This document shows, piece by piece, positions 3,155-38,697 of a stretch of 43,312 nt of DNA. How positions within the stretch are numbered: position 1 is the stretch's first letter; each line of letters begins with the position of its first letter. Location: positions 1 through 43,312 of IMG/VR virus record IMGVR_UViG_2565956616_000006; one strand, written 5' to 3'. Source of the DNA: a virus. Taxonomy: Duplodnaviria > Heunggongvirae > Uroviricota > Caudoviricetes. Made by a program: the position numbers and the translations under genes. The notes under the pieces were generated by a model. The model searched no databases. It saw nothing but the letters and a program-made list of their open reading frames with translations, and was not told the origin of the DNA.

Positions 3155-3156
3155 CC

Positions 3157-17635: not shown

Positions 17636-17645
17636 GGATGGAGCC

Positions 17646-18351: not shown

Positions 18352-21094
18352 TCTTATCCGTCAGGTTATCAGTGCGTCTGAAAACAACTGGCCTCATGTG
18401 CTGGGCTGCCTGAACATAAATGTCCCTGACTCTCCGCGCCGTCATGCTCCCTGCCCTGCATGTGGGGGCAAAGATCGATTCCGGTTCGATGACAACGGGC
18501 GCGGTAGCTTCATCTGTAATCAGTGCGGCGCTGGTGATGGGCTGGATTTAATTAAACGCGTAAATAACTGCGACACAACAGAGGCGGCGCTTCTTGCCGC
18601 TGATGTTCTGGGTATTGATTACCGGACAACGGAAACACCAGAAGCCACCAGCCAGAAACGGGAACAACTGGAAACCGAGCGCCAGCGACGCGAACAGGAG
18701 CGCCTGAAAAGGGCAGAGAAGGACGAACAACAAAGACGGGATACGTTTTCCCGTCAGTTTGATGACATGCGCAGAAAGGCTGTAAACGGCAAATCTGATT
18801 ATCTGGTTGCGAAAGGGGTAGGTGATTTTACATTCCCCGTGTTGCCCGATGGATCTCTGTTGCTGGCGCTGGTGGATAAATCCGGCGCAGTAACAGCAGC
18901 ACAGACTATTACCTCACATGGTGAAAAAAGACTCCTGACAGGTTCAGCAAAGCGGGGGGCATATCACGCCATAAACGCACCAGAAACAACACAGAGCATC
19001 TTAATCGCAGAAGGTCTGGCAACGGCATTATCTGCCCATTTAATTCGTCCAGAGGCGCTGACAGTGGCGGCGATTGATGCCGGGAACCTGTTATATGTCG
19101 CCCAGGTACTGCGGGATAAATTTCCTTCAGCACAAATCATCATTGCTGCGGATAACGACCACAGCGAAGGAAGACAAAACACGGGGAGAATAGCAGCAGA
19201 AAAAGCAGCTTTATCTGTTTCTGGATGGGTGGCATTACCCCCGACAGATCACAAAGCAGACTGGAATGATTACCACCAAAAACACGGCATTAAATGCGCC
19301 ACAGAAGCGTTCAATAAGTCAATGTACCAACCACAGGGTAATGGCGTGAAACAGGAGCCACAGACCATTGAGGGAAGCGATTTTAAGGTTATGGATACCG
19401 ACCCACTGAAACCAAGAATAGAAAGCCGCGAGGATGGTATTTATTGGGTATCTCCGAGAGCTGACAGCCAGAGTGGAGAAATCATCAATAACGAAAGCTG
19501 GTTATGTTCTCCGTTAAGCGTTATCGGTACTGGCAGAGACGATAAAGACCAGTATCTCATTCTTCGCTGGCTGTCGTTTGGTTCTGAAACGCCGACAACC
19601 GCTGCCATTCCACTGGCTGATATTGGTGAACGTGAAGGATGGCGCACACTTAAAGCTGGTGGGGTAAATGTCACGACCAAAAGCAGCCTCAGAGCAATAC
19701 TGGCAGACTGGCTACAACGCAGTGGCTCTCGTGAATTGTGGCGTGTTGCTCATGCCACTGGCTGGCAATGCGGAGCGTACATCATGCCTGATGGGGAAAT
19801 CATCGGAACACCTGAAAATCCTGTGCTGTTCAGCGGGAGAAGCTCAGCCGCAGCCGGATATACCGTCTCAGGGAGCGCGAAAAGCTGGCGTGATAACGTG
19901 GCGCGTCTGGCCTTTGGTAACTATTCAATGATGACCGGGATCGGCGCAGCACTGGCAGCGCCATTGATTGGGCTGGTGGGCGCTGACGGGTTCGGCATTC
20001 ATTTCTATGAGCAGTCGAGCGCAGGTAAGACCACCACGGCAAACGTGGCGAGCAGCTTATACGGCAACCCTGATTTACTGCGGCTGACGTGGTACGGAAC
20101 CGCGCTGGGGCTGGCAAATGAGGCCGCCGCCCACAATGACGGACTAATGCCGCTTGATGAAGTTGGTCAGGGCGCTGATCCTGTCAGCGTTTCACAGTCT
20201 GCCTATGCGTTATTTAACGGTGTAGGGAAACTGCAAGGCGCTAAAGATGGTGGAAACCGGGATCTAAAACGCTGGCGTACAGTGGCAATCAGCACCGGAG
20301 AAATGGATTTAGAAACATTTATCGCTACTTCCGGGCGAAAAACCAAAGCCGGGCAACTGGTGCGACTGCTGAATATTCCGTTGAGTAAAGCAGTACGCTT
20401 TCACGATTACCAGAACGGAAAACAGCACGCAGACGCACTGAAAGACGCTTACCAGCATCACCACGGCGCGTCCGGGCGTGAGTGGATTAAATGGCTGGCA
20501 CACCACCAGCAACAGGCTATTAAAACCGTTCGTGATTGCGAAAGCAGATGGAGAAGCCTGATCCCATCCGATTATGGTGAGCAGGTTCACCGTGTAGCCG
20601 CGCGATTTGCCATTCTAGAGGCCGCATTGTTGTTAGGCGAGGTTGTAACAGGCTGGGATGCTCAGACATGCCGTGATGCGATACAGCACAGCTATAACGC
20701 ATGGTTGCGCGAGTTCGGCACAGGTAACAAAGAGCATCAGCAGATTATTGAACAAACGGAGGCATTTCTTAATGCCTATGGGCTTAGCCGTTTTGCACCA
20801 TTTCCATACAGCCCGGCAGATTTGCCCATCAAAGATTTAGCCGGATACCGTCAGCGTGGAGAACATGACGAAAGCCCAATGATTTTCTACACATTCCCGG
20901 CCACATTTGAAAAGGAGATCGCATGTGGTTTCAACGCAAAACAGTTTGCTGAAGTGTTGAAAAAAGCCGGGATGCTAACCCCACCAAACAGCGGTCGTGG
21001 ATACCAAAGAAAATCACCACGTATTCAGGGACGACAAATAAACGTTTATGTACTCAATTACCAGCCAGGAGATTATAACTCATCTGAAGAATGA
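18335..21094 (+). CDS. Primase-helicase (P4 alpha-like: zinc-ribbon + TOPRIM primase + P-loop helicase domain)
   Basis: 919 aa; CPACGGKDRFRFDD...CNQCG zinc-binding motif, TOPRIM-like ILIAEGLATA and IIIAADNDH, Walker A-like SSAGKTT; followed by iteron cluster. Confidence 0.85.
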   Translation: MMRNIDLIRQVISASENNWPHVLGCLNINVPDSPRRHAPCPACGGKDRFRFDDNGRGSFICNQCGAGDGLDLIKRVNNCDTTEAALLAADVLGIDYRTTETPEATSQKREQLETERQRREQERLKRAEKDEQQRRDTFSRQFDDMRRKAVNGKSDYLVAKGVGDFTFPVLPDGSLLLALVDKSGAVTAAQTITSHGEKRLLTGSAKRGAYHAINAPETTQSILIAEGLATALSAHLIRPEALTVAAIDAGNLLYVAQVLRDKFPSAQIIIAADNDHSEGRQNTGRIAAEKAALSVSGWVALPPTDHKADWNDYHQKHGIKCATEAFNKSMYQPQGNGVKQEPQTIEGSDFKVMDTDPLKPRIESREDGIYWVSPRADSQSGEIINNESWLCSPLSVIGTGRDDKDQYLILRWLSFGSETPTTAAIPLADIGEREGWRTLKAGGVNVTTKSSLRAILADWLQRSGSRELWRVAHATGWQCGAYIMPDGEIIGTPENPVLFSGRSSAAAGYTVSGSAKSWRDNVARLAFGNYSMMTGIGAALAAPLIGLVGADGFGIHFYEQSSAGKTTTANVASSLYGNPDLLRLTWYGTALGLANEAAAHNDGLMPLDEVGQGADPVSVSQSAYALFNGVGKLQGAKDGGNRDLKRWRTVAISTGEMDLETFIATSGRKTKAGQLVRLLNIPLSKAVRFHDYQNGKQHADALKDAYQHHHGASGREWIKWLAHHQQQAIKTVRDCESRWRSLIPSDYGEQVHRVAARFAILEAALLLGEVVTGWDAQTCRDAIQHSYNAWLREFGTGNKEHQQIIEQTEAFLNAYGLSRFAPFPYSPADLPIKDLAGYRQRGEHDESPMIFYTFPATFEKEIACGFNAKQFAEVLKKAGMLTPPNSGRGYQRKSPRIQGRQINVYVLNYQPGDYNSSEE

Positions 21095-21112
21095 GCTTCT
21101 TCATGTGCGTAG

Positions 21113-21233
21113 AAAAGGTGTTGGTTCAGTTGGTTCAGTTGGTTCAATTTGTAAAGTGTATTGTTTTATAAGGATTTTATTCTTTTTATTGAACCAACAC
21201 TGAACCAACAACACGGTATTTTGAACCAACACA
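21113..21233. repeat. ori-like iteron cluster 1: 3x TTGGTTCA(G) direct, AT-rich spacer, 3x TGAACCAAC inverted
   Basis: Seen directly, immediately downstream of primase-helicase stop. Confidence 0.7.
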
Positions 21234-21280
21234 ATGTGACTGAATTGATGCGCACAACACCTGGCTGGCATCAGAGAGTG

Positions 21281-21356
21281 TTTTACGAGACTTTCGTAAA
21301 ATCCTGTGTACAAGGGCGTGACGTTTTTGAAAGTGAGCACTACGAAATTTTCGTAG
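21281..21356. promoter_or_regulatory. Two related palindromes (TTTTACGA-gactt-TCGTAAAA and CTACGAAA-t-TTTCGTAG), candidate operators
   Basis: Perfect 8-bp-arm inverted repeats about 60 bp apart in a non-coding stretch. Confidence 0.4.
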
Positions 21357-21551
21357 TTCAAAAAACAGCCTCTGAGAAGTTGTTATGCCTGTTCAGCAAA
21401 CCATCCGCATAGCTGATCGCGAATCAAATTACCAATGGAGCCAGAAGCAAGGGCAGAACTGAAAAGCGCCTGCCGTGAAGAGTAATGCGACACCATAAAT
21501 ATAGTTTTTAGAGTCCATAAAAAACCTGTCAAAACCTGACACACAGAACGA

Positions 21552-21583
21552 TGCCACCAGCTACTGAGCGGTGGCATTTTTTT
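21552..21583 (+). terminator. Rho-independent terminator
   Basis: TGCCACC-11 nt loop-GGTGGCA stem followed by T7; closes a ~330-nt ORF-poor stretch downstream of ori 1. Confidence 0.65.
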
Positions 21584-21678
21584 GTGCTATTTGTTTCATA
21601 TTTTGCAATTACTATGATGAATATTGCGATTTGTGAAACTATAATAACTGTTGTTTTATACAGTTCTAAGGGGGCGTT

Positions 21679-21840
21679 ATGGCTATTTCAGTAAAGCCGG
21701 TATTGATAAGTGAGAAGCAAATGGAAGCGATAAAGAAAATTCAGGAAGAGCAGCGTAAAAAATCAGGAATTGGAGTAGCGCCAACTCTGCATGAAATTGC
21801 ACGAGGGTTAATAGATAAGGCGCTGGCAGGCTGTATGTGA
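21679..21840 (+). CDS. Small hypothetical protein (53 aa), first gene of cargo operon
   Basis: ATG with AAGGGGGCG RBS; below the 60-aa cutoff of the ORF track; translated by hand (MAISVKPVLISEKQMEAIKK...). Confidence 0.4.
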   Translation: MAISVKPVLISEKQMEAIKKIQEEQRKKSGIGVAPTLHEIARGLIDKALAGCM

Positions 21841-21856
21841 AAATGGATGGCATCGC

Positions 21857-22318
21857 ATGGAACTAAAATTTATTGATAACCCTGTGCGATTACAGGCCTT
21901 TCTTAACGAGCCAGGCAATACCGAAAATATTGTTGAGCCGGGGCACACGTACTACATCAAGCCTGATGCGGTATATCTCGGCATCTACGAAGGATTGGTG
22001 CTGGCTGGCGTTCATGAAGTGCGTAACTTCTGGCATAGCATTGTTGAATGCCATGCGGTGTACGACCCCGGATTCCGTGGTGAATATGCACTGCAAGGGC
22101 ATCGATTATTCTGCAAATGGCTTCTCGAAAACTCACCATTCCTTAACAGCATTACCATGGTTCCTGACACCACCAAATACGGACGGGCAATTATCCGTTT
22201 GCTTGGCGCTACCCGTGTTGGTCACCTTGATGATGCTTATATCAGATGTGGTAAACCCGTCGGCGTAACGCTTTATCAGTTAACTCGGCAACAATATAAG
22301 GAATTCAGCGAATGTTAA
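21857..22318 (+). CDS. gp14-like protein, island copy (153 aa)
   Basis: Weak but colinear similarity to the prophage gp14 at 2699-3154 (e.g. FDCHAMYLPEVRG vs VECHAVYDPGFRG; VTFYSATREE vs VTLYQLTRQQ); same size; precedes gp7-like gene. Confidence 0.55.
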   Translation: MELKFIDNPVRLQAFLNEPGNTENIVEPGHTYYIKPDAVYLGIYEGLVLAGVHEVRNFWHSIVECHAVYDPGFRGEYALQGHRLFCKWLLENSPFLNSITMVPDTTKYGRAIIRLLGATRVGHLDDAYIRCGKPVGVTLYQLTRQQYKEFSEC

Positions 22319-22989
22319 TTACCCACATAGCTCATAAACATCTCAATCGTGCCGTATACGAAAAAGGCGGTGATGGTGGTGCCTCTAAAGCTCAGGCGAA
22401 GGCCCAGCAGCAGGCAATTGATTTGCAGCGCGAGCAGTGGAATACGGTGATGAATAATCTCAAGCCGTATGCAGAAGTCGGATTGCCTGCTTTACAACAA
22501 CTACAAGGACTGATGACTCTGGAAGGGCAGAATAAAGCCGCGAATGATTTCTTTGGTTCTGGTTTATATAAAACACAGGCAGATCAGGCCCGTTATCAGA
22601 ACCTTGTCTCAGCAGAAGCTACCGGGGGGCTTGGCTCAACAGCTACCAGTAACCAGTTATCTTCCATTGCGCCCATGCTTTATAACAATTGGCTTAGTGG
22701 GCAAATGCAAAATTATGGAAACCTGCTAAATGTCGGGATGAATGCGGCATCAGGGCAGGCAACAGCAGGGCAAAACTACGCCAATAATACCGGGCAACTC
22801 TTGCAGGGGCTTGGCGCTATTCGTGCAGGTCAGGCGCAGCAGCCATCCAGTCTTGCGCGTGGTATTGGTGGGGCGGCATCAGGCGCTTTAGCGGGTGCGC
22901 AACTTGGTTCCGTTGTTCCGGGTATAGGTAATGTCGCCGGGGCTATTGGTGGTGGGCTTATTGGTCTTGTTGGGGGGCTTGGATTCTAA
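22312..22989 (+). CDS. Ejection protein gp7-like, island copy (225 aa)
   Basis: Clear similarity to prophage gp7 at 3157-3852 (NT.MNNLKP..., ARYQ.L..AEATGGLGSTATSNQL..IAP...WLSGQM.NY.NL, Gly-rich C-terminus). Confidence 0.75.
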   Translation: MLITHIAHKHLNRAVYEKGGDGGASKAQAKAQQQAIDLQREQWNTVMNNLKPYAEVGLPALQQLQGLMTLEGQNKAANDFFGSGLYKTQADQARYQNLVSAEATGGLGSTATSNQLSSIAPMLYNNWLSGQMQNYGNLLNVGMNAASGQATAGQNYANNTGQLLQGLGAIRAGQAQQPSSLARGIGGAASGALAGAQLGSVVPGIGNVAGAIGGGLIGLVGGLGF

Positions 22990-24410
22990 TGGCGACATGG
23001 CAACTTGGCGGGCTGCCTAGCATGGCACCGCAAAATGATAATGCTCCTCGTTCTTCCGTTCCTCAGCCTGTGCAGTATCAGCAGCAGCCAAACGTAGGTT
23101 TAATGGCGCTACAGGGGCTAAGAGGCGTTGCTGAGATTAATCAGCAGGCACGTCAACAACAGCGTAAAGCAGAGTTTCAGAAAGCATATGCCGGGGCTTT
23201 TGAGTCTGGAGACAGAAACAAAATGCGCAGTCTTATTTCTGAGTATCCAGAAGAATTTGAAAGCGTTCAGAAAGGGATGGGCTTTATTGATGACGACCAG
23301 AGAAATTCTATTGGTCATCTTGCGACTAGTGCTCAAATCGCATCTTCGCTCGGAACTGGGGCATTTGGAAAATTCATAGCAGATAACGAAGATGAAATGC
23401 GTCGCTTGGGAATTTCTCCTGAGTCTGTTGCCGAAATGCATGTTAATGATCCACAGGGATTCCAGCGGCTTGCTGGTAGTATGGCACTGTTTTCTCTCGG
23501 TCATGAGAAGTATTTCGATATCAAAGATCAAATGGAAGGTCGGGATATTGAGCGTGGCAAGTTGGCAGAAACAATCCGCAGCAATCAGGCTGGCGAAGCA
23601 CTTCAGGCGAGAGGGCAGGATATTAGCCGAGCAAATGCGTTAACGTCAGCATATGCACCAACAGCAGCAATGCAGAATTACAATCAGTACGCTCAAATGT
23701 TAAAGGAGGATCCAGAGGGGGCGGCGGCATTTGCGGCAGCGGCTGGAATTAATACAAACGCCAAAAAATTAATGAGTGTTAGAGAAAACGATGATGGCAC
23801 TGTCACAAAATACTACACAGACGGAAGTGAAGAGCAGGGAAAACTAAACCAGCCAATATCTGGAGATGGGTTTCGTCCAATAGCTTTGCCAACAGCCCAA
23901 AAGATCATGGAAAAGTCGCCAGAAGGGGCTAAAAAAGCTGCTGGATTTGCATACAGGGTTAGGGATGCTCTTGATTCAATAGATACACTGAAAGACCAGC
24001 TTAGCCCACAGCGAGTGGCGATCATTAATAATGCTTTGGGTAATGGGACGCTGGCTAACTTAACGCTCAGCCCAACAGAGCAGCAATACGTTGTTAATGC
24101 TAATGACGCAATAATGGCAATACTCCGTCAGGAAACAGGGGCAGCTATCGTACCTGCTGAAATGTCAAAATATTATCAAATGTATTTCCCTCAGCCTGGC
24201 GACTCCACAAAAACCATTGATACCAAGCGCCGGAAGATGGAAAACCAGTTCAATTCGCTGAAAGCTGCTTCTGGTCGAGCTTATGATGCTTTGCGGGTTA
24301 TTTCAGCAGTTGACAGAGGAACTTCTTCTTCGTCGCAGACATTGCCGCAATCTGAGCAGGTATCACAGCCAGCAGCCAGCAGTAACTTTTCTTCACTATG
24401 GGGTGATTAA
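22989..24410 (+). CDS. Ejection protein gp20-like, island copy (473 aa)
   Basis: Starts MATWQ like prophage gp20; shared block [22 protein letters not shown]; similar length. Confidence 0.75.
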   Translation: MATWQLGGLPSMAPQNDNAPRSSVPQPVQYQQQPNVGLMALQGLRGVAEINQQARQQQRKAEFQKAYAGAFESGDRNKMRSLISEYPEEFESVQKGMGFIDDDQRNSIGHLATSAQIASSLGTGAFGKFIADNEDEMRRLGISPESVAEMHVNDPQGFQRLAGSMALFSLGHEKYFDIKDQMEGRDIERGKLAETIRSNQAGEALQARGQDISRANALTSAYAPTAAMQNYNQYAQMLKEDPEGAAAFAAAAGINTNAKKLMSVRENDDGTVTKYYTDGSEEQGKLNQPISGDGFRPIALPTAQKIMEKSPEGAKKAAGFAYRVRDALDSIDTLKDQLSPQRVAIINNALGNGTLANLTLSPTEQQYVVNANDAIMAILRQETGAAIVPAEMSKYYQMYFPQPGDSTKTIDTKRRKMENQFNSLKAASGRAYDALRVISAVDRGTSSSSQTLPQSEQVSQPAASSNFSSLWGD

Positions 24411-26515
24411 TGGCTAAAGCATGGAAAGATGTTATCGCCTCTCCACAGTATCAGGCGTTAGCACCAGAACAAAAAGCGCAGGCTCAGGAGCAATACTTCA
24501 ATGAAGTCGTTGCCCCGCAAGCCGGAGAAAGTGTAGAGCAGGCTAAGCAGGCTTTTTATGCTGCCTATCCACTACCATCAACGAATGAAATAGACCGAGC
24601 CCAATCAGCAACTCAAAATATTCAACATACATCATCTGATAATTCTCTTGCGTCAGGGTATGCAAAGTTAGCTACTCAGCAAAGAGAGGGGCTTGAGCGT
24701 TCAGCAGAACAGGGAGCCAGCCTTGGGGCTGCGATGCGCGATGCTATAACAGGCGAAAGCCGAATGACTCCAGAGATGGAGAGACTGCAAAATGTCGACC
24801 TTGCCCCAGAGTTAACCTCACTCAGCATGGATGCTCTAAAAGCTCGATGGTCTCAACTTTTCGGCTCTGACGCATCTCAGGAAAAGATTCTTCAGAGCAT
24901 GGGAGCGAAATTAAGGCAGGATGAGAAGGGTAACACTATCGTTTCCCTGCCATCCGGTGATTATGCTCTGAACAAGCCGGGTTTATCGCCGCAAGACGTG
25001 GCATCGTTTCTGGCTAATGCGCTGGCGTTTACACCAGCGGGCAGGGCCGGAACGGTGCTGGGGGCCATAGGGAAATCAGCAGCTACAGATTTAGCACTAC
25101 AGGGAGCCACCAGCCTCGCTGGTGGAGAAGATATTGATCCGTTACAAACGGTAATTTCTGCTGGCATTGGTGGTATTGGTAAGGGGCTGGAAAATACAGC
25201 GAGTGCGGTTTCGAGGGCTGTTCGTGGTGATATGTCGCCTGAAGCAAAGGCTGCTGTCGACTTTGCATCGGAAAGAAATCTGCCGTTAATGACCAGTGAC
25301 ATGCTGAAAGATAAAACCTTTATGCAGAGTCAGGCTCAGACATTAGGCGAAAGAGTTCCTTTTTTTGGAACCGGTAAGAATCGGCTGAATCAACAACAAG
25401 CACGAGAAAATTTAGTCAGAACATTTAGCGATGGTCTGGGTGGCATTTCTGATAAACAGCTTTATGAATCTGCGACTAAAGGGCAACAAAAATTCATTGA
25501 GGCAGCAGGAAAGCGATATAACCGCATAATTGACGCTATGGGGGATACCCCTGTCGATCTCTCAAACACGGTAAAAGCTATCGACAATCAGATTGCTGTG
25601 TTAAGCCGCCCGGGTAAATCTCAGGATAGAGCCGCGGTAAAAGTCTTGCAGCAATTTAAAGACGATATCACCAGCGGACCAAATGACCTGCGTCTGGCGA
25701 GGGAAAACAGAACCGATCTTCGAAAGCGGTTTATGGCGTCATCTGACACTGTTGATAAAGATACGCTCCAGAAAGCCAGCGATATTATCTACAAGGCATA
25801 TACGGCGGATATGAAAAAAGCCGTAGCCAAAAATCTTGGAGCAGACGAAGCCATTAATATGGCAAGGGTTGATCGCTCATGGTCTAAATTCAATGACATG
25901 ATGGGAAGAACGCGCGTTCAAAAGGCAATAGCCAGCGGCAAGGCCACGCCTGAGGATGTAACAAAACTCGTTTTTAGCCAAAGCCCATCAGAACGTTCTC
26001 AGCTTTACAGGCTTCTGGATGACAATGGTAGGCAAAACGCACGAGCAGCCATAGTTCAGAATGCTGTAGATAAGGCGACTGATCCGTCTGGAAATATCAG
26101 TGTTGAGAAGTTTATTAATGCGTTACACCGGAACAGGAAGCAATCAGCAACTTTCTTTAAAGGCGTACATGGAAAGGAACTGGACGGCGTTATTAAATAC
26201 CTCAACGATACAAGACACGCGGCAAAAGCGAACGTTCAAAACTTAAATGGTCAGCAGCTTTATGGATTGTTAGTTGGTGGTGGCATCATAAACGCAGCAG
26301 TATTAGCGGGGATGCTAAAAACGGCTGCGTTTGTTGTTCCTGCTGCTGGTGCCGTAGGCGGAGCCGCGAAGGCATACGAAAGCCCTGTTATACGAAATGC
26401 CTTGTTACGTTTGGCAAATACGCCAAAAGGTAGCACAGCATATGACAGAGCGATCAGTACGGTCACACAATCGCTCACCAGAGTCGCACAGGCATCACAA
26501 AAAGAAGCTCAATAA
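24410..26515 (+). CDS. Ejection protein gp16-like, island copy (701 aa)
   Basis: Colinear similarity to prophage gp16 (AVAKNLGA...; C-terminal [16 protein letters not shown]); position after gp20-like. Confidence 0.7.
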   Translation: MAKAWKDVIASPQYQALAPEQKAQAQEQYFNEVVAPQAGESVEQAKQAFYAAYPLPSTNEIDRAQSATQNIQHTSSDNSLASGYAKLATQQREGLERSAEQGASLGAAMRDAITGESRMTPEMERLQNVDLAPELTSLSMDALKARWSQLFGSDASQEKILQSMGAKLRQDEKGNTIVSLPSGDYALNKPGLSPQDVASFLANALAFTPAGRAGTVLGAIGKSAATDLALQGATSLAGGEDIDPLQTVISAGIGGIGKGLENTASAVSRAVRGDMSPEAKAAVDFASERNLPLMTSDMLKDKTFMQSQAQTLGERVPFFGTGKNRLNQQQARENLVRTFSDGLGGISDKQLYESATKGQQKFIEAAGKRYNRIIDAMGDTPVDLSNTVKAIDNQIAVLSRPGKSQDRAAVKVLQQFKDDITSGPNDLRLARENRTDLRKRFMASSDTVDKDTLQKASDIIYKAYTADMKKAVAKNLGADEAINMARVDRSWSKFNDMMGRTRVQKAIASGKATPEDVTKLVFSQSPSERSQLYRLLDDNGRQNARAAIVQNAVDKATDPSGNISVEKFINALHRNRKQSATFFKGVHGKELDGVIKYLNDTRHAAKANVQNLNGQQLYGLLVGGGIINAAVLAGMLKTAAFVVPAAGAVGGAAKAYESPVIRNALLRLANTPKGSTAYDRAISTVTQSLTRVAQASQKEAQ

Positions 26516-26533
26516 CTGGTAGCCATGGATGGC

Positions 26534-27148
26534 TTAGATATCTCTGCTGTCTCCATTAGGAAATAAAAGATAATATGGATTTGCCTTTCTTGCTCTCCTT
26601 GCTTCACCTGGATACCTGTTAGTCAGTAGTTTGCATAATGAGCAGAGAACAACACTCAAGAAAATTCCGAATGAGAAGATCAATATCTCACCAAAAATCA
26701 ATGGCGATATTAAATTTTCAGGATTTAATGATAAGTCAATGTTAAAAACATATTGAGCAATACCAGTAAGTATCAATAATATAATCCCTATGGAATACAT
26801 TGCTGTTTCCCAAACATCAGACAGTCTATTTTTGAATTGTTCGCTGGAGTAGTAGTTTGTTATAAAGTCAGAAAAATCACTCTCATATGCATCATCTTTA
26901 GGTGATGTTAGAAATCCTCTGTCTCTCCATACCTTCTCCCAATTAGTCGATTCTTTTTTTAAGGAAAAATAAATATGTATTGCCAAAAGGATAGCCAAAA
27001 TTGGTGTTAGCTCTAAAAAATAGAATGTTATGGAATAAATAATACTGCCATGTTCAAACTCATCTGGGACTATCATGTATGCACAAAAATAAATTGAAAA
27101 GTACACCATGCAGATAGTTAGCAATTCTTTAGTATCTTTTCTGCTCAC
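26534..27148 (-). CDS. Low-GC integral membrane protein (about 4 TM helices), candidate exclusion/abortive-infection factor
   Basis: 204 aa, hydrophobic segments, AT-rich codon usage unlike neighbours; convergent with gp16-like gene, in the position where P22 carries sieA. Confidence 0.5.
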   Translation of the reverse strand: MSRKDTKELLTICMVYFSIYFCAYMIVPDEFEHGSIIYSITFYFLELTPILAILLAIHIYFSLKKESTNWEKVWRDRGFLTSPKDDAYESDFSDFITNYYSSEQFKNRLSDVWETAMYSIGIILLILTGIAQYVFNIDLSLNPENLISPLIFGEILIFSFGIFLSVVLCSLCKLLTNRYPGEARRARKANPYYLLFPNGDSRDI

Positions 27149-28017
27149 ACCAACCCCCTTTAGCGTTGTTTAGAATGGCAATCATCATATATCCAAGACA
27201 TGGCATTTGGTACATAGCTTGGGTCGGGATTTCAAATCCGATCCCCGTTGATGGGGCCGTTACAGTACGCGCATATCCGCTTTATGTGAAACAGGAAGAT
27301 TTTTCTGATATCACTGCCACAGCAAAACACCAATTTCGTGACCAGTACGCGCGCGAGGGGTATCAGTTGCAAAAATTTTGCAACTACGTCCGACCAGTAC
27401 GCACACGATGGCGGGGGATACCATGAAACTGTTCTCTACACGAGACAGAGTGGTGGTGATGTGTTGATTATCGGCGTATATGCGCACAGGACGCGCTATG
27501 ACGATGTTTTATGCGGGTACACCAATCACATGTATCTGATGTGATAAATCGTGTTACATGACATCTCATGTTGTGCTGGTGGTTATCACGACGTTCTGAA
27601 TCTGGCCTTTGCCTGATATTTTGCGACAAGTACGCGCGCGTAGCATCGAAATTATCGGATGGCGTATGCTGCTGGCAATATGAAGACCGATAGTATTAAC
27701 CGAAAAGCGATTAAGGAGTGCCAACTTTTCAGTAGAGAAACTAGCCAGCATAGGAAAATGTAGAAATTACCCAATTAATAGGTAAAAGTTATTGACACAG
27801 CCTGTAGTGGATAACGATATGAATAAAAACCACATATAGTGGTTTTTCGTGAGTGATGATAGTATCTATGTTAGTTTCCTAAGTAACTGTGCATTGACAT
27901 GTGGATAACTTCGGATAGAGTTACAGGCAACCGAGCCCGATCCTCTGTTTCTCCGCCGCCGATTTCAGGCATGTGAGTTTCACGGTCGGGCCTTTTATTA
28001 TCTTTTGTTTCGCCACT

Positions 28018-28995
28018 ATGATTGCCGCAAAGCCTCATAAGGACTATCACGAATTGCTAGGATTGCTACTTGAACGTGGCATGATTATCAATGATCGAAA
28101 TCGTGCGATACGTAAGCTGTCGCAGGTTGGATATTATCGATTGTCAGGTTTTTGGTACCCATCAAGAATTATTGCGACAACAGATAAAGGTCTTTCGTAC
28201 AGAACAGACCGATTTCTTGCTGGTACCAGTTTCGAGAAGACGTACGATCTATATCTTTTTGACAAAAAACTGCGTCTTTTGATGATTGATGCTATCGAAA
28301 GAATAGAGATTCATGTTCGTTCAGTCATCGCGCATGAGGTTGGTCGCAATGATCCACTTGCCTACATGTCATCAAAATACATTAATCCAAAATTCTCATC
28401 TGCCTTCGAGCATTGGGTGTATAAGCAAAAAGTAAAATTAGACGAAAGCAGAGATGACTGTATTGAATGGCATCGAAGCCAAGGCAAGGAGATTCCATTT
28501 TGGGTGGCGGTGGAGACCTGGGATTTTGGTCAGATGTCTAAATATTATGCGATGCTTAATGGTCATATGCAGGGGAAAATTATACGTCGTTTTGGCATTG
28601 ATAATAAGCAGACATTTGCAAAATGGTTGAAGTGCCTTAATCTCATAAGGAATCGTTGCGCTCACCATTCCAGAATATGGAATAGAAAGCATCCCCGAGT
28701 TCCAGTACCGGATAATGAATACTTTGACGGACTTAATCTCCATCCAGAGAGTTGCGAGAGGATTTTTAGCGCGATCTGTATTATCTGGTACTTAGTTAAA
28801 CGACTTGGTCCGGGATCAACATGGCTTCGGCAAATTGCAGACCTTATTGACTCTAAACCAAATGTTCCCGGATGTGGATATGATTCAATGGGTTTACCTG
28901 CTAAAGGATTCCCACGAGAGAGATTCTCTCAGGACTTAGGTTTTGTTATCGCCGACAACGACCCTGTAGCTGAAGGGCGGAAAGGGAGCGATTGA
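28018..28995 (+). CDS. Abortive infection protein, Abi_2 (AbiD/AbiF-like) family
   Basis: N-terminal motif KPHKDYHELLGLLLERGMIIND...VGYYRLSGFWYP typical of AbiD/AbiF-like proteins; ORF track start 27973 is GTG, ATG at 28018 preferred. Confidence 0.65.
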   Translation: MIAAKPHKDYHELLGLLLERGMIINDRNRAIRKLSQVGYYRLSGFWYPSRIIATTDKGLSYRTDRFLAGTSFEKTYDLYLFDKKLRLLMIDAIERIEIHVRSVIAHEVGRNDPLAYMSSKYINPKFSSAFEHWVYKQKVKLDESRDDCIEWHRSQGKEIPFWVAVETWDFGQMSKYYAMLNGHMQGKIIRRFGIDNKQTFAKWLKCLNLIRNRCAHHSRIWNRKHPRVPVPDNEYFDGLNLHPESCERIFSAICIIWYLVKRLGPGSTWLRQIADLIDSKPNVPGCGYDSMGLPAKGFPRERFSQDLGFVIADNDPVAEGRKGSD

Positions 28996-29024
28996 GCGAT
29001 AAATATCATTTATACACTGATCAA

Positions 29025-29453
29025 TTACTGAAGCAGCGTATTGATTCTTTTAATATTGTTACCCTGACGCTTCCACGCGCTGTAAATGTCTTTATCCCAC
29101 GCTTTACCAGCTTTTGTTTGGTAGCCTGCTTCATTGAGCCGTTCCGCTATCACACGCCCATTATCAAATCCCTGTCGGATGGTATCGGCAATGATCTTTA
29201 TAACTGCCGTTTCGTTATATGGCTTTGGTGGGATGTTCGGCTTTCCGGCAATAAGCGACGCAGCGGCTTTTTCCATGCGCTCCACCAGCCCAAGCATTCG
29301 TGAATCAATAGACTTTTCCGGCTGTCCCAGCTTCATGCGAATCGCATCAACAAGCCAGGAGGTTTTATCCCCTCCAGAAGCGAGAACAGACCGATTAAAC
29401 TCATCCTGCAATTCAGATGGGATGCGGAACGCGACCAGATTAGATTTGCTCAT
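29025..29453 (-). CDS. Putative transcriptional regulator with ribbon-helix-helix N-terminus
   Basis: MSKSNLVAFRIPSELQDEFNRSVLASGGDKTSWLVDAIRMKL resembles Arc/CopG-type RHH; start taken at internal ATG 29453. Confidence 0.45.
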   Translation of the reverse strand: MSKSNLVAFRIPSELQDEFNRSVLASGGDKTSWLVDAIRMKLGQPEKSIDSRMLGLVERMEKAAASLIAGKPNIPPKPYNETAVIKIIADTIRQGFDNGRVIAERLNEAGYQTKAGKAWDKDIYSAWKRQGNNIKRINTLLQ

Positions 29454-29562
29454 TGCAAAGACCATATCAGTGAGTAATATCCATACAGTATACCACTGTA
29501 TAACACTGTTATACGCTCAAATATCAGCCAGAAAATAACGGACCAATCACAAAGCTATCGCT

Positions 29563-29696
29563 GTGTTGTTGGTTCAGAGCTGGGCTGTGTTGGTTCAAAA
29601 TGAGTTGATGTTGGTTCAATATTTCAGAAAAAACACAATAAAAACAACGATCTTTACAAATTGAACCAACTGAACCAACTGAACCAACACCTTTTT
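29563..29696. repeat. ori-like iteron cluster 2, inverted copy of cluster 1
   Basis: Reverse complement of 29652-29695 is identical to 21113-21156 (44 bp); same TTGGTTCA/TGAACCAAC content in mirrored order. Confidence 0.7.
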
Positions 29697-29724: not shown

Positions 29725-30012
29725 ATGATAAGGGACAGGAAAGCTGAAGAACTGGAGTCAAAAGGGCTATACCGGAGAGCTGCCGCACGATGGGCAGAAG
29801 TCATGATGCTGGCAGATGGCGATAAAGAACGTGAACATGCAGCAAACAGACGCTCTGAATGTATCCGTAAGGCGGCACGCCCACCAGCAACTACAGACAG
29901 ATTCGGAGATTTAAGACAGGCAGTTAAGCGGACTCATTCGGCTCTTGGTATGGATGAGGAAGCGAGAGGGTATTTCAGGCGTTATCGCGATAAAGATTGC
30001 CAGAGACAGTAA
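29725..30012 (+). CDS. PerC-family-like transcriptional activator (95 aa)
   Basis: N-terminus MIRDRKAEELESKGLYRRAAARW resembles PerC-like proteins (from memory). Confidence 0.45.
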   Translation: MIRDRKAEELESKGLYRRAAARWAEVMMLADGDKEREHAANRRSECIRKAARPPATTDRFGDLRQAVKRTHSALGMDEEARGYFRRYRDKDCQRQ

Positions 30013-30372: not shown

Positions 30373-30975
30373 CAAGAAAATCAATAACTTAGCTTAACTT
30401 CTCTAAGAAATTGTATCTTCTGTTATCACTTACAAACGCCTATACGTTGTTATGGGCTTTGGTAGTGTAACACGTATGGGCGAGTAGTTCCCAGGCTCAA
30501 CCTCGTAACAAGTTCCTTTGAAGCTGGAAGACGTGCCACCGTCTCTAAACCTTCTACCAAAACTCTTAGCAAGATGTTCCACACCTGGCGCGGTGTCCAA
30601 TGATGCCACACGTCGTGAGACGTTGCAGAGGATAAACAGGCTAAATGATGGGAAGAGTTTTAAGTGCAATAGTGGATTAAAGCCCACCTCTTCAAAACCT
30701 AACTTGATCGGGAAAGAATCAAGCTCTAGCACGGTTTCGTCCACCGGAGTACAACGGGTGCCTGATAAGAGAAGAACTGCTAAGACTTCATAGCTTTTGT
30801 GAAAAAGCCCTTTTAGTGGATACGCCTACGGCGCTTATTTTTTGGTATAACCATCAAAGGCGCTTTATGGCTCCTATTGTCTTGAAAATGTATCTTTACT
30901 TGTATTGTGTTTTATGCGTAGTCTCCCTGTGTAGTATGTAACTTGTTAATTTTCATATGAATACAGAGGCACACG

Positions 30976-31134
30976 ATGAAAAACATTGCAGCTATCAAAC
31001 GTAATAACCGCAAGATTCACGCTCGTAAGTTCCTGTCTACGCCAGAAGGAAAAGCCTGGCTAGAGCGTAAACAGAGAGAGAACGAAGAAAGAAAACTCCT
31101 TAGTGAGTTGAAATGGCTTAGAGAGGATTTCTGA
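30976..31134 (+). CDS. Small basic hypothetical protein (52 aa)
   Basis: ATG with GAGG RBS; hand translation MKNIAAIKRNNRKIHARKFLSTPEGKAWLERKQRENEERKLLSELKWLREDF. Confidence 0.3.
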   Translation: MKNIAAIKRNNRKIHARKFLSTPEGKAWLERKQRENEERKLLSELKWLREDF

Positions 31135-31299
31135 AAATCTCCAGAACGCAACAGGGCGCATTCTAACGCTGTTTTCATTGCTCGGTATAGGGATGTATAG
31201 GTGATGTGTGTTTAATGCGTCTGTGAGCTTGTTTTATGTCTTATTTTGCATTTTCATAATGCAGGAGAGAACACGGAAAGCCTTAAAATTAATTATTGG

Positions 31300-31340
31300 G
31301 GTATTTAAGGCTATTTTTAGGGTATTTAAGGGTATTAAAC
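31300..31340. repeat. Direct repeats of GGTATTTAAGG (2 full + 1 partial), followed by phased TAAATA A-tracts to about 31460
   Basis: Seen directly; AT-rich, ORF-free. Confidence 0.5.
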
Positions 31341-31478
31341 TTGATTTAATTGATTAAAATATAAACAGATAATTATGTATCTTATTGATTTATAAGGTTA
31401 TTTTTAAATAAAGGTAAATAAAAAATAAATAGCCATAAATAGCTATAAATACATCTAAATACCTATATCCCTTCCCTT

Positions 31479-31886
31479 ATGGCTAGATTGCGAGAGGTGC
31501 TTAACGCGATTTTTAGCGCCCCCCGATCTGGAAAATCCAGAATCCCCAAATATCAGCAAGGAATTTTCTTGCGTAATCAACATCGTTTTTACCTATTAAA
31601 TCATTACACAGAAAGCCTTTCTGTAATGTCTCTCACTAAACTTTCACTAAACACGAGAATGATCGGTTTTATGTCGGATCAGATGCTAGAAACAGCACCA
31701 CGTCTCACAAGGGCTGTAAGCGATGAAACCAGTGTTTATGCGGGTGCAGGTCAAAATATAGGCCAAAGTCCATTTAACATAATAAACGTAATATGCACTA
31801 AGGAACACATAGAACGCCTTGAGTTGATGTATAAGGGGAAAAGTGGTGGATTTTTTTACGTAGGAGCACGAGAGGGCTTCTATTGA
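31479..31886 (+). CDS. Hypothetical protein (135 aa; real start may be internal)
   Basis: ORF in AT-rich region, no clear RBS. Confidence 0.3.
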   Translation: MARLREVLNAIFSAPRSGKSRIPKYQQGIFLRNQHRFYLLNHYTESLSVMSLTKLSLNTRMIGFMSDQMLETAPRLTRAVSDETSVYAGAGQNIGQSPFNIINVICTKEHIERLELMYKGKSGGFFYVGAREGFY

Positions 31887-32266
31887 CTTTTGTATGCTAT
31901 GAAATATAATAGAAGGTTTTTATTTTTATGTTGATAGTGATTGCACATTAAAGATTGAAAGCAAATTTAAACATAAATTTTCAACACGTGAAAGAACTTG
32001 TTCGACAAATGATAGAACGTTTATTGAGCAACAATTTTGCAGTGATGCGCTATATGCCGCATAACATAAGGCTTTGCTGATGATGACGCAAAAGTGAAGA
32101 AAGCTAACATTGCACTTTTTAAGCTACTTTTCATTGGATTTTTACGTAGGAATTACACAGGGATTAATCATCAATTACATTGAATTTAAGCCTGTTTTAG
32201 ATGTTTAATTTTGGTAGCAAGAAACACTTTTAGAAGATCATTGCACAGATGTTATGTGATAAATGG

Positions 32267-32426
32267 ATGTAACGATGGGTTACATTCAGCTATCTGAAAT
32301 ACTCTCTGTAAGAAATTTGGTAGTAACGATTCGTTACATAGACTAATTATTGAATGTAACGATATTACACATCGGTAGTAACGATTCGTTACATCGGCAG
32401 ATGATTGGTTGTAACGAAAGGTTACA
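32267..32426. promoter_or_regulatory. Array of five palindromic sites, consensus (T)GTAAC-N5-GTTAC(A), spaced about 56, 32, 22 and 33 bp
   Basis: Sites at about 32267, 32323, 32355, 32377 and 32410; two copies are identical (GTAACGATTCGTTAC). Confidence 0.55.
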
Positions 32427-33149
32427 CAATAAGACTAACATCTATAATACTAATAATAAAACTAACTATTAAACTATATAATATAATTCTTTTTTATCTT
32501 TATAAGAATAATTATAGGGATACCCGTTAGGGAGTCTAACGACTATCCCTTAATCTATTGGCATTCGCCAGAACCTTGCACAAGTTAGAGTGTTAGTCGT
32601 TAGACTGATACTTCTCATAACACATAGTTTTTTGTTTGTTGATGTTAGTTAGTAGATCTATGTTCGCTAATGCCGCTCACAACGAATATGTAATCTACTA
32701 TGTGCAAATAGCCTACGGCTTGCGTAAGGCTAAATAGTCTATGCGCTGTGCGCTTCAATAGTTCCATTGATGAGGCTTACGCCAATCTAACGATCATCAA
32801 TCTATTTAAGAGAAAATCTATTGTGCAATACTCTGACGAGTGCAATAACCTTGTGTGCTACGCGTTAGCGATGTTAGCACATAGACACAGACAACAACCA
32901 ACAACAAACAAAAAAGAAAGAATGGTTTTAGTAGTTGAAGGTTAAATAAGATTCTACCGCTTAAATCAAGCCTCTGGCGAGCTAAACAACCTCTACATAA
33001 GGGAATGTATTGTTTTTATCAAATACCTCGTTAGAACGCGTTTTAGAGCGTTTTAGAGAATAAGGAAGAATAGGAGCACTCGTAAGAGCACGAATTGCTA
33101 AGAAAAATTATAACACACTGAAAATGATCAATATTTTTATGGCCAGGGG

Positions 33150-33178
33150 TTGACAAAAGCTTTTAGTTATGGTAAAGT
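33150..33178 (+). promoter_or_regulatory. Sigma70-type promoter (TTGACA-17 bp-TAAAGT)
   Basis: Consensus -35 at 33150-33155, 17-bp spacer, -10 at 33173-33178, upstream of the island-2 small-gene cluster. Confidence 0.5.
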
Positions 33179-33301
33179 AATATTAGGGACAGGAAAACAT
33201 TCCTATCCTCTAAATAATTAAACCAATGCACCGCACTTTGAAGCCCAAGAGGCTTGCAAGGTGTCTTTTTCTTTTAACCAAATAGAATAGGAGGTTAATT
33301 A

Positions 33302-33484
33302 GTGAAGTATTTCACTTCTCAAGATGTAGTTGAAGCCTGGAAACGTGGTGAGATCAACCGCTTTAGGGTAAGAATGAATAGGAACACAGCGCGACGCTGT
33401 GGTTATCCAGAGCGTGAAAAATGTTTTGACGATGCACTGAAAATTATTGATGAACTGCGTAAGGCAGGAGCAGAGAAAGAATAA
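33302..33484 (+). CDS. Small hypothetical protein (60 aa)
   Basis: GTG start with AGGAGG RBS 7 nt upstream. Confidence 0.45.
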   Translation: MKYFTSQDVVEAWKRGEINRFRVRMNRNTARRCGYPEREKCFDDALKIIDELRKAGAEKE

Positions 33485-33505
33485 TAACAGGAGAAGGAGA
33501 AAACT

Positions 33506-33673
33506 ATGAGCGAAACCAAGAAACCAATTCCACGCACTTACCTACACGTTGACCCTGAAATTTTCAAGATTTTATTTGCTGAAGCCAAGAAAAGGCAAAT
33601 TATGGTCAGTGATTTGATGTTAGAAATCATTACTGAAGCAGCAGAGAACATCAAACAAAAAAAGGGTAAGTGA
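33506..33673 (+). CDS. Small hypothetical protein (55 aa), possible RHH/partition-like DNA binder
   Basis: ATG with GGAGAAGGAGA RBS; hand translation MSETKKPIPRTYLHVDPEIFKILFAEAKKRQIMVSDLMLEIITEAAENIKQKKGK. Confidence 0.45.
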   Translation: MSETKKPIPRTYLHVDPEIFKILFAEAKKRQIMVSDLMLEIITEAAENIKQKKGK

Positions 33674-33726
33674 TCCTCATTCACTTTAGTAGCGCATTAA
33701 GCGTGATTTATAAGGAGATAATTCTA

Positions 33727-34407
33727 ATGTCTAAAATTAAATTGATTCGTGAAAAATACCAGTATGTTGATCAACAAACAGGAGAAATTAAAGACCGAAC
33801 TTTGAATATACCACACTACTTTTGTGAGATTGAATTCATCTACTCCTCAAATATTGAGGATGGAAAAGCGAAGTTTAGTGCAGAAATGCAAAAATTATAT
33901 TGCTATGTTTCAGATTGGGAGAAATCAGGGGGGATATGTTTTGAAACACAAACGAAGTTAAGTAAAGTTTGTGGCTGTAGCCGTAAGACAGTTAATGAAT
34001 TGATTGGTCTTATGATTAAAATCGGTCTTTTAGAAGAGGTCGGAGAACGAATCCCAAAACGTCCATTAAAATTACGTGCGCTACCTCTCACAGATGCACA
34101 TATTACCCCCCCTAGAGAGTCATCACTACCTGATCCTTCTGAGAAAGAAAACGAATCTAATGAAATATTGAATGTTTCAGAAATCATCGTTGAAGAAGAA
34201 ATACAGGAATCAGAGTTCCCTGAGCGGCCCGAAATTTTTACTTGGCTTCTTTCCCTTGATAAGAAGAAACCACCGCACGAAGAAACAGAAGATTTTGTAA
34301 AACGAGCATTAGATTCAAAGAATATCTATCTTTGTGAAAATGATTTTGACTCTTTGATAATTGATCTCAAAAGTGAGAGCACAATATATGATTCACTACC
34401 CTTTTAA
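33727..34407 (+). CDS. Hypothetical protein with predicted helix-turn-helix (possible replication initiator/regulator)
   Basis: ATG with AAGGAG RBS; segment TQTKLSKVCGCSRKTVNELIGLMIKIGLLEE is HTH-like; acidic C-terminus. Confidence 0.45.
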   Translation: MSKIKLIREKYQYVDQQTGEIKDRTLNIPHYFCEIEFIYSSNIEDGKAKFSAEMQKLYCYVSDWEKSGGICFETQTKLSKVCGCSRKTVNELIGLMIKIGLLEEVGERIPKRPLKLRALPLTDAHITPPRESSLPDPSEKENESNEILNVSEIIVEEEIQESEFPERPEIFTWLLSLDKKKPPHEETEDFVKRALDSKNIYLCENDFDSLIIDLKSESTIYDSLPF

Positions 34408-34416
34408 GGAGAATAA

Positions 34417-34686
34417 ATGGCTTATAACATCACTATAGGAAACAAAACTATTGAAATAACTGAGAGCGGATACCACATTTTAAAAGCTATTTTGGAAATA
34501 GAGTTCTCACCGCCGACAGTGGTTAGCTTTTGTAGTTTAGGCGGCTACAGCGCACAACACGTGAATCATTGGTTAAACCATTTTACATCGTTCGGTGTGC
34601 TGGATTATGAAGGGATTAACCACACTACATTTCGTCTTTTGAAATTAAACAAAGATTTTGAATTGTTTATCACAAACAATCAATAA
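34417..34686 (+). CDS. Hypothetical protein (89 aa)
   Basis: ORF with AAGGAG RBS. Confidence 0.45.
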   Translation: MAYNITIGNKTIEITESGYHILKAILEIEFSPPTVVSFCSLGGYSAQHVNHWLNHFTSFGVLDYEGINHTTFRLLKLNKDFELFITNNQ

Positions 34687-34782
34687 CAACAGATCGGGCA
34701 ATACATATGGCAAATGCATTTATGGCGATATTCATCGTAACTATGGCATTAAGTTTTTATAATCCACATAAAAAGAGGGAAA

Positions 34783-35169
34783 ATGGGAAAAAAGAAACGT
34801 AATAACTTAAAACGTATTGAAAAAAACAGTAACTTCAATTCAACAAGACAACGTCCACCGACACATACCAATAACGAAATTCCAGGGGAAGAGATAATCT
34901 TCATTTTAGAATCTAACAGCCCACCACTTACAAACGAAGAATTAGAAATTATTCAATCAATGGGTGATGGTGTGTATTTCAAACCCAGAACAAGAAAGAC
35001 AACGATTATAGAACCTGGCACATTAAAGAAATGGCAGCTGTTAAATTTTACCAGCTACAGGCACTATATCGGTTTTAATAGTTTCAACAATCAGGTAGGC
35101 GGCGTTACAGAAACAGATCTGATGCAGCACCTGATCGACACTCTCGCATCTAACAAACGTTCAAACTAA
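34783..35169 (+). CDS. Hypothetical protein (128 aa)
   Basis: ORF with AGAGGGAAA RBS. Confidence 0.45.
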   Translation: MGKKKRNNLKRIEKNSNFNSTRQRPPTHTNNEIPGEEIIFILESNSPPLTNEELEIIQSMGDGVYFKPRTRKTTIIEPGTLKKWQLLNFTSYRHYIGFNSFNNQVGGVTETDLMQHLIDTLASNKRSN

Positions 35170-35186
35170 AAATAAAAGGAACAACA

Positions 35187-35390
35187 ATGATCGACCATAT
35201 ACAGGAAACACAATTATTTCAGATGATCCTGTCTGATGCAAAAAACTATGCTGAGTTAATTCGGCTGGCAAAAGAAACAGAAGACTACGAAGCATTAGAG
35301 CGTTATCGTGATGAAGTGCTGACGCTCAAGACACCTTTTAACATCGTATTGAATATGATTAATGATGCATTACAAGGAGAAGCCGCATAA
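35187..35390 (+). CDS. Hypothetical protein (67 aa)
   Basis: ORF with AAAGGA RBS. Confidence 0.4.
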   Translation: MIDHIQETQLFQMILSDAKNYAELIRLAKETEDYEALERYRDEVLTLKTPFNIVLNMINDALQGEAA

Positions 35391-35698
35391 TGGAAGAAGA
35401 TATTAGCAATGCAATGGAACAACTTTTAGATCTGACTATCTCACTACAAACAAGAATAAATCAAGCCTATTCAGATTTATGCGATTACACGCTCTCTCAA
35501 TGCGTTATTAGCTTAATGAAGGTGAATGTAAGCCTTGACGATTTTATCTCTCTGGGGAGCGGTTTAGAGCTATCAGAGGACAATGCCAGGCTGTGCACTC
35601 AAATCATCACAGACACCGCAAGCACGTTAAAGGCTGCAAGTGAAGAGATTCAGCAATTAGTAAATGATTTAGCAAAAAGTGCTATTTCTTCTAAGTGA
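35390..35698 (+). CDS. Hypothetical protein (102 aa)
   Basis: ORF with AAGGAGAAG RBS, coupled to previous gene. Confidence 0.45.
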   Translation: MEEDISNAMEQLLDLTISLQTRINQAYSDLCDYTLSQCVISLMKVNVSLDDFISLGSGLELSEDNARLCTQIITDTASTLKAASEEIQQLVNDLAKSAISSK

Positions 35699-36683: not shown

Positions 36684-36881
36684 ATGAAACAAGAAATGAT
36701 TATCAGCAAAGACGGGGAAACGATGATTGTTAGTGATGAAAACCTCATTAAGGTTGCCGCACTGTTGGGAGTTACTCCCGAAAGTCTTCGTTCTACCACT
36801 GCTCAATTATTTAAATCGGCTGATGCGGTTAGTCTTGCTGATGCCCTTAAATCTAAAATTAAACAACTGAAAGGAAAATAA
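36684..36881 (+). CDS. Small hypothetical protein
   Basis: Internal ATG (MKQEMIIS) of ORF 36642-36881. Confidence 0.35.
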   Translation: MKQEMIISKDGETMIVSDENLIKVAALLGVTPESLRSTTAQLFKSADAVSLADALKSKIKQLKGK

Positions 36882-36885
36882 TCTT

Positions 36886-37269: not shown

Positions 37270-37283
37270 CAAGGAAAATAATA

Positions 37284-38315: not shown

Positions 38316-38466
38316 TAAAGCGTTAATAGACGATTCCCCATCGGGGCAATAAGGGTAAAGGGATTAACTAACCTGTAGGCGCAAATACAGTAACGAATCT
38401 CTTTGCCCTTTTTGTTTTTCTACTGTCTACAAACCCAAATAAAAATATATATGTGAGAGAAAACCA

Positions 38467-38679: not shown

Positions 38680-38697
38680 TACAGGGAAACAATTAGC

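Follow-up and report, generated by a model that had tools for sequence, protein, structure and literature searches.

SieA proteins fall into three types, A, B, and C. They share a conserved cytoplasmic motif, FxRYPxEAxxFNK, and all of the sieA genes examined were located in P22-like prophages (Leavitt et al. 2024, PMC10883804). AbiD/F systems consist of a HEPN toxin and an upstream RNA antitoxin; in the published picture, the RNA blocks the toxin's active site, and a terminator in the leader yields the short RNA in excess (PMC12373285, PMC13064643). Two such pairs, AbiF/AbiFr and AbiFCd/RCd22, are type III toxin-antitoxin (TA) systems (PDB 8VZ6; Zilberzwige-Tal 2025, via PMC12373285 and PMC12737573; Saunier 2025). 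Here we describe a locus that resembles both kinds of system. It occupies positions 26,534 to 28,995 of the virus record IMGVR_UViG_2565956616_000006, a 43,312-nucleotide (nt) stretch of DNA that we refer to as the window, and it contains a gene for a small membrane protein followed by a gene for an Abi_2-family protein, both carried by a genomic island. A sequence-only reading of this DNA had proposed that the two genes form a defense-like accessory pair. Our analysis indicates that they are likely two independent anti-phage modules, a SieA-family protein and an AbiD/F HEPN protein with its own leader RNA, which sit in separate, exchangeable slots.

The membrane protein gene (26534..27148, minus strand) begins with a GTG codon that follows AAGGGGG, and encodes 204 amino acids (aa). 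It is convergent with the gp16-like gene of the island (24410-26515), and its stop codon lies 18 nt past the end of that gene; the P22 sieA gene occupies the same place in the same orientation, 22 nt beyond gene 16. Kyte-Doolittle hydropathy analysis identified four hydrophobic segments (residues 9-27, 39-57, 112-137, and 150-168), with the basic residues on the predicted cytoplasmic side, as would befit a small polytopic protein of the inner-membrane type such as SieA. The length of the protein and its extra N-terminal transmembrane (TM) segment resemble those of SieA types B and C. The sequence-only reading had described an AT-rich, convergent, four-TM gene in the sieA position downstream of the E-protein cassette. 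That description was accurate, and it understated the relationship. In BLASTP comparisons, the protein aligned with the type A SieA of P22 (E=8e-8, 29% identity over 108 residues) and with the type B SieA of HS1 (E=2e-9, 34% over 118 residues), while an hhalign comparison of a profile of the window subfamily with P22 and HS1 SieA gave a probability of 98.1% (E=7.7e-14, 111 columns). The phrog_7745 "SieA-like" profile was weakly matched (E=4.4e-4). The motifs YSSE..NRLSD and NRYPGEA..RK are common to the 204-aa protein and SieA (as YSxE..NRxSD and RYPGEA..K), and the core of the Leavitt et al. motif (PMC10883804) is contained in them. Judged from its sequence, then, the membrane protein is a true SieA homolog and more than a positional analog. 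Slot 1 of the island, which its gene fills, is inherited from the P22 sieA position.

This branch of the SieA family is sparsely populated. An exhaustive search of 1.84 billion protein representatives returned 41 relatives, only five of which were close. The sole close relative outside of E. coli is a Citrobacter freundii protein (50% identical); its gene fills the sieA slot, and the P22-like late region around it is complete, in the order gp16, homolog, arc/mnt, ant, tailspike. The gene in the window, in contrast, has no gene 9 on its far side because its carrier is not a full prophage: the island lacks virion structural genes apart from an ejection cassette. The base composition of the gene is in keeping with its family. 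Its GC content is 32.8%, compared to 47.7% for the neighboring gp16 gene and 46.8% for the island, and sieA genes are AT-rich everywhere we looked (33.7% GC in P22, 36.3% in HS1, and 38% in Citrobacter). AT-richness is therefore a trait of the sieA family and not evidence of recent import. The sequence-only reading had taken the composition shift as a sign of separate acquisition; low GC alone is a weak argument for this. Comparative genomics does place both genes in variable slots.

The Abi protein is encoded at 28018..28995 on the plus strand. It spans 325 aa and matches Pfam Abi_2 with E=2.3e-52 (178.4 bits, against a cut-off of 25.6) over profile positions 2-184 of 184. It is also matched by the PADLOC AbiD model (8.4e-58) and by phrog_2158 (2.1e-56), and contains the VGYYRLSGFWYP motif; the Abi_2 assignment made in the sequence-only reading is right. 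Its start codon is almost certainly ATG 28018 rather than GTG 27973, because ATG 28018 is the RefSeq start, relatives with 66-68% identity align from residue 1, and GTG 27973 falls inside the conserved RNA described below. The solved AbiF protein of a Prevotellaceae bacterium (PDB 8VZ6) aligned with residues 4-301 (E=4e-36), a full-length match. The HEPN motif, R211-N-R-C-A-H216 (nt 28648-28665), which conforms to the R-phi-xxxH pattern of the AbiF proteins, is intact; RNRCAH aligns with RNSCCH of 8VZ6, and it is the same in a second E. coli allele whose protein is 51% identical. The window protein shares 29% identity over 92% of its length with AbiF of the C. difficile phage phiC2, which is 99.9% identical to the experimentally characterized AbiFCd. 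The lactococcal proteins AbiD, AbiD1, and AbiF (DefenseFinder "Abi2", PADLOC "AbiD") belong to the same Pfam family. Standard finders would call the window gene AbiD or Abi2, and a requirement for an upstream RNA has been reported for their group. The sequences are nonetheless distant, with Gram-positive phage homologs at most 29% identical to the window Abi.

Like the genes of the characterized AbiF systems, the abi gene of the window is preceded, in a single predicted transcription unit, by a promoter and a short structured RNA with a terminator-like end. The promoter is sigma-70-like (TTGACA-16-TAGAGT, 27894..27921, plus strand), and agrees with the consensus at 10 of 12 positions, a score (10/12) that places it in the top three sites between 26400 and 30500. 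The structured 5'-leader (27927..28007, plus strand, ~80 nt), which we propose to be an AbiF-type antitoxin, has an outer helix (GCCCGAUC/GGUCGGGC) and an inner hairpin bordered by conserved CUCUG and UCACG strands, with a U-rich tail behind them. In the two E. coli Abi alleles, the upstream DNA is the same but for a single mismatch up to ~27925, that is, through the -10 element of the promoter; beyond that point their leaders diverge, yet they retain a hairpin with a compensatory change. We examined 80 homologous Abi loci (39-68% identity), which come from Pseudomonas, Vibrio, Xenorhabdus, Pasteurellaceae, Desulfobacterota, Cyanobacteria, and other groups. The same element was present in nearly all of them: its outer helix is GC-rich and 8 bp long, its CYCUG and UUAYG/UCAAG strands are conserved, its inner hairpin varies, and its tail is U-rich. 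Of 69 distinct homologous loci, 65 had a promoter that matched the consensus in at least nine of 12 positions and ended 4-5 nt ahead of the RNA, compared to five of 270 control windows. Because the promoter ends 4-5 nt ahead of the element, the leader RNA would form the extreme 5' end of the transcript.

We built a covariance model, R1, from 30 non-enterobacterial sequences and no enterobacterial one. Searched against the 43-kb window, R1 gave a single match, at 27927-28007 (39.5 bits, E=8e-10), and it matched 76 of 82 Abi sources, always on the gene strand and directly upstream. In the R1 alignment, 97.4% of the cells were paired (slid controls, 25-43%), 13 of the 16 pairs showed double changes, and none of 500 shuffles equaled this; the alignment was fitted to the model, which favors the pairing score, but RNAalifold gave the same pattern on an independent MAFFT alignment, with 12 of 16 pairs showing compensatory changes. 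Five Pasteurellaceae loci (L066, L072, L076, L077, and L079) have the same RNA architecture, with an outer helix that has fully covaried (GGCGUAGC/GCUACGUC), and are missed by R1 at E<=0.001; the RNA family is therefore wider than the model. No family in Rfam 15 matched the leader RNA, whether in the window or at any of 12 related loci. By analogy with AbiF, the conserved structured RNA fits the type III TA design as the true partner of abi, one that the sequence-only reading had missed. Two other candidates for this partner were rejected: a ToxI-type tandem-repeat antitoxin, as there are no tandem repeats in 26400-28100, and the abiF motif of Rfam, which is absent.

Two further features were seen upstream of the promoter. 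A perfect hairpin at 27824-27849 (AAAAACCAC-ATATA-GTGGTTTTT), with A and T runs on either side, separates the island backbone from the Abi promoter and resembles a bidirectional terminator or insulator. A further copy of TTGACA...GTGGATAAC is present at 27793.

Comparison with six other islands defined the surroundings of the two genes as two cargo slots parted by a conserved core. Slot 1 (26535-27144) is filled here by the sieA-like gene. Slot 2 (27650 or 27711 to 29054, plus strand) contains the spacer with the hairpin, the promoter, the leader RNA, and abi; its borders are set by islands that lack Abi, in which similarity to the window ends at 27649 or 27710 and restarts at 29055. The non-coding backbone core between the slots (27145-27649) is 94-99% identical across islands of every cargo combination, and is carried by ~609 of 5426 complete E. 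coli genomes. Indels are seen in it, and its substitutions are not biased toward any codon position. The open reading frames (ORFs) in the ~870-bp gap between the two genes (86 aa and smaller) likewise have no family matches and no codon-position bias, on which grounds coding potential of the gap was rejected. The core contains five same-strand CAGTACGCGC repeats (27263, 27343, 27395, 27487, and 27628, spaced by 80, 52, 92, and 141 nt), which are significantly clustered, yet conserved no better than their surroundings. The repeats could be an operator or iteron array; as constrained sites they were rejected, their conservation being no higher than that of the flanks.

In other islands, slot 1 encodes either a membrane protein of 129 aa or a secreted one of 145 aa, and slot 2 encodes the second Abi allele, an ImmA/IrrE protein with a small hypothetical gene, or a 73-aa ORF. 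Each slot thus holds at least three types of cargo between conserved flanks, which is the pattern of a defense hotspot, and the description of both genes as accessory cargo holds up: they are exchangeable, in an island without capsid, terminase, tail, or lysis genes. Among the 5426 complete E. coli genomes, 103 encode the sieA-like gene, 74 this Abi (a count that covers this allele and leaves out the 51%-identical one), and 64 both, leaving ~39 genomes with the sieA-like gene but no Abi and ~10 with the converse. The two genes are also found apart at a second integration site, near yicG. As a separate observation, the N-terminus with which the slot-1 proteins of other islands begin, MIAILN(K/N)AKG, is encoded by the backbone; this start persists in the window as an 18-codon remnant (27149-27205, minus strand) directly upstream of the GTG of the sieA-like gene and out of frame with it, which suggests that cargo was swapped downstream of a fixed promoter and start.

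From the homology, the synteny, the slot structure, and the conserved, covarying promoter-RNA-gene unit, we infer how the two modules might act. The divergent SieA-family protein would reside in the inner membrane and, as suggested by its homology with the SieA proteins of P22 and HS1, block there the DNA delivery of incoming P22-like phages, by interfering with the gp20/gp16 ejection conduit. The Abi protein would be a ribonuclease toxin of the AbiD/F group that is transcribed from its own promoter behind the ~80-nt leader RNA. The P1 helix and U-rich tail of the leader probably end most transcripts early, and the RNA would bind and silence the Abi dimer according to the type III TA logic, by analogy with AbiF/AbiFr and AbiFCd/RCd22. 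Phage infection would then upset the balance of RNA and protein, such that the freed RNase arrests the cell.

Several observations pull against this account. The similarity to SieA is confined to the C-terminal half, or ~110 residues, of the 204-aa protein, and amounts to only 29-34% identity with types A and B. The FxRYPxEAxxFNK motif is matched in part: the window reads TNRYPGEARRARK. The variant, LTNRYPGEARRARK, keeps the RYPxEA core and the final K while differing at the F and FN positions (FNK reads ARK), and it is invariant throughout the window SieA subfamily. A tblastn search of 50,697 phage genomes gave no match to the membrane gene, megablast gave none to any sequenced phage, and none of the NCBIfam and PADLOC models matches the membrane protein; in the region, PADLOC recognizes the Abi protein. 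For abi, there is no obvious Shine-Dalgarno sequence in the window. The Rfam abiF motif (RF03085) gave no match at E<=10 in 27140-28060, whereas the positive control, phiC2, was matched with 37.6 bits; conversely, R1 does not detect phiC2, though on gut phage-like contigs with Abi proteins of only 30-35% identity it does recognize the element. RCd22 contains two ~36-nt abiF motifs where the window leader is one ~80-nt element of two helices, and the leader shares with RF03085-type RNAs only short CUCU and UCAA strands beside a GC-rich helix. The leader is accordingly a different or very divergent motif, and the two kinds of RNA may be distant relatives. The window system also differs from the described AbiF systems in its host, E. 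coli, and its carrier, a P22-associated island. Finally, the 64 E. coli genomes with both genes exceed the ~12.5 expected under independence.

This last point, together with the fact that the genes are neighbors, is what speaks for the pairing proposed in the sequence-only reading, in which the membrane protein and the Abi_2 protein would constitute one two-gene defense system, such as a HEPN nuclease coupled to a sensor or effector in the membrane. We consider this very improbable. The two genes lie on opposite strands, on either side of a core that is conserved whatever the cargo, and each is found without the other. The Citrobacter freundii SieA relative has no Abi nearby, no SieA-like gene lies within 3 kb of any of the 80 Abi loci of other species, and both families are known to act alone. 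The excess in E. coli can be plain linkage, as the E. coli copies all share at least 99% identity. The sieA-like gene and abi are therefore neighbors in a two-slot hotspot and not one system. The nature of each module can be questioned in turn. It is unlikely, in our view, that the Abi/RNA module is mainly an addiction cassette that stabilizes the island by post-segregational killing, with phage defense secondary or absent. Type III TA logic would suit addiction as readily as defense, the module is carried on an excisable island, and published work could not demonstrate anti-phage activity of the C. difficile AbiF; on the other hand, it was phage-resistance phenotypes that led to the discovery of lactococcal AbiD, AbiD1, and AbiF, slot 2 also houses other defense-type cargo, and the island does not need Abi, given that only 74 of the ~609 island-bearing genomes have this allele. 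There is a slimmer chance that the leader only holds abi expression down in cis, as an attenuator or terminator, rather than acting in trans as an antitoxin that binds the protein. With a U-rich tract behind its GC-rich P1 helix, it resembles an intrinsic terminator, and RCd22 has an additional role in regulating abiF transcription, but the conserved single-stranded CUCUG and UCAAG/UUACG segments and the covarying inner helix exceed what a terminator needs, and the solved AbiF complex and RCd22 both display direct RNA-protein binding.

As for the membrane protein, it could serve the life cycle of the island, through helper interference or as a matched set with the island gp20 and gp16, rather than exclusion on behalf of the host. 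In favor of such a role, SieA acts on gp16 and gp20, the gene adjoins island E-proteins that are only distantly related to those of the adjacent P22-like prophage (~33% identity for gp20 and ~29% for gp16), and that resident prophage has no SieA homolog in its own slot. Yet other islands have unrelated envelope proteins in slot 1 behind very similar gp16 genes, and types A and B SieA showed no E-protein allele specificity in published tests. We hold this role to be distinctly unlikely. The positions of SieA-escape changes in gp16 and gp20 of the island, the resident prophage, and P22 lie in alignments too divergent for comparison. A bolder combination, to which we give similarly little credence, is that the island carries a matched set for offense and defense and, separately, that its leader RNA would define a widespread class of AbiF-antitoxin RNA that is missing from Rfam. 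In that case, the divergent gp20 and gp16 would be loaded into hijacked helper capsids, and the SieA variant would block the conduits of competitors or helpers while the island's own gp20 and gp16 were insensitive, letting island DNA enter cells that express this SieA. It would be the first satellite known to have both its own DNA-delivery proteins and a cognate entry block. We otherwise retain the reading of two independent modules.

Both modules belong to known families, and the current understanding of these families is not overturned. The novelties are modest ones: a SieA outside of a full prophage, and a covarying RNA motif that is absent from Rfam. The annotation of the locus is corrected, as in RefSeq the membrane gene is "hypothetical" and the RNA is overlooked. 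The range of SieA extends past full P22-like prophages to a prophage-adjacent island present in ~11% of complete E. coli genomes, and an E. coli AbiD/F gene is seen to travel together with its promoter and RNA as one cassette. Covariation supports the RNA motif strongly, and the motif occurs in Proteobacteria, Desulfobacterota, Cyanobacteria, and on gut phage contigs. R1 is a ready model with which to look for AbiF-type antitoxin RNAs that defense finders currently miss.

The window is E. coli chromosomal DNA; the 3.2 kb that we searched (26400-29600) matches strain a15 and others at 100% identity. It contains three mobile elements in tandem. The late end of a P22-like prophage (80-11440) encodes gp4, gp10, needle, gp14, gp7, gp20, gp16, the ORF in the sieA slot, a lipoprotein, mnt/arc, ant, and tailspike. 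The island (12016 to ~30400, ~18.4 kb) follows, with an integrase at 12016, AntA, Ash, a Zn-ribbon/Toprim/DUF927 primase (18335-21094), and an ejection cassette of gp14-like (DUF2824), gp7, gp20, and gp16 proteins (within 12016-26515). The third element (~30400-42701, 31-40% GC) encodes an HTH_36 protein, a Dit-like tail protein (40587-41255), and, on the minus strand, an integrase of 454 aa; it sits between the island and a LysR gene fragment, and most of its ORFs have no Pfam match. The same layout is found in E. coli HS, where a P22-like prophage at thrW is followed by another integrase.

The gene content of the island is that of a satellite, with an integrase, its own replication genes, no virion or lysis genes beyond the ejection proteins, and a size within 10-20 kb, and on this basis it is plausibly a phage satellite. 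Its placement in tandem with a P22-like prophage is circumstantial evidence for helper dependence. Unlike the P4-like hotspots, it has ejection proteins, Ash, and a Toprim/DUF927 primase; no Pfam family for the P4 hallmarks psu, delta, and sid was found among the scanned island ORFs of at least 90 aa, small ORFs being partly scanned. Our literature search turned up no description of satellites or other elements that carry P22 ejection proteins.

In the resident prophage, the sieA slot (7141-7530, minus strand) encodes a 129-aa secreted protein with a signal peptide (...FGATAECW) that by eye is not a SieA homolog. The end of this signal peptide, FGATAECWVVGD, resembles by eye the FGANAECWIIGD of the 145-aa slot-1 protein of some islands (L004:4178-4615, minus strand), and the 129-aa protein may be another envelope protein of the exclusion type.

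Beyond abi, the backbone encodes a 146-aa protein (29025-29465, minus strand) whose last 10 codons fall inside the variable slot 2. It occupies the position of P22 mnt, and its N-terminus looks by eye like a ribbon-helix-helix; family searches gave no significant match, and a weak one to a recombinase-type HTH (E=0.04). The gene is divergently paired with that of a PerC-family activator (29725-30012, plus strand). Downstream of PerC, other strains have a variable stretch that encodes Panacea-domain and pRiA4b ORF-3 family proteins (L005:7111-8003 and L002:7171-7713), which suggests a third cargo slot in this family of islands.

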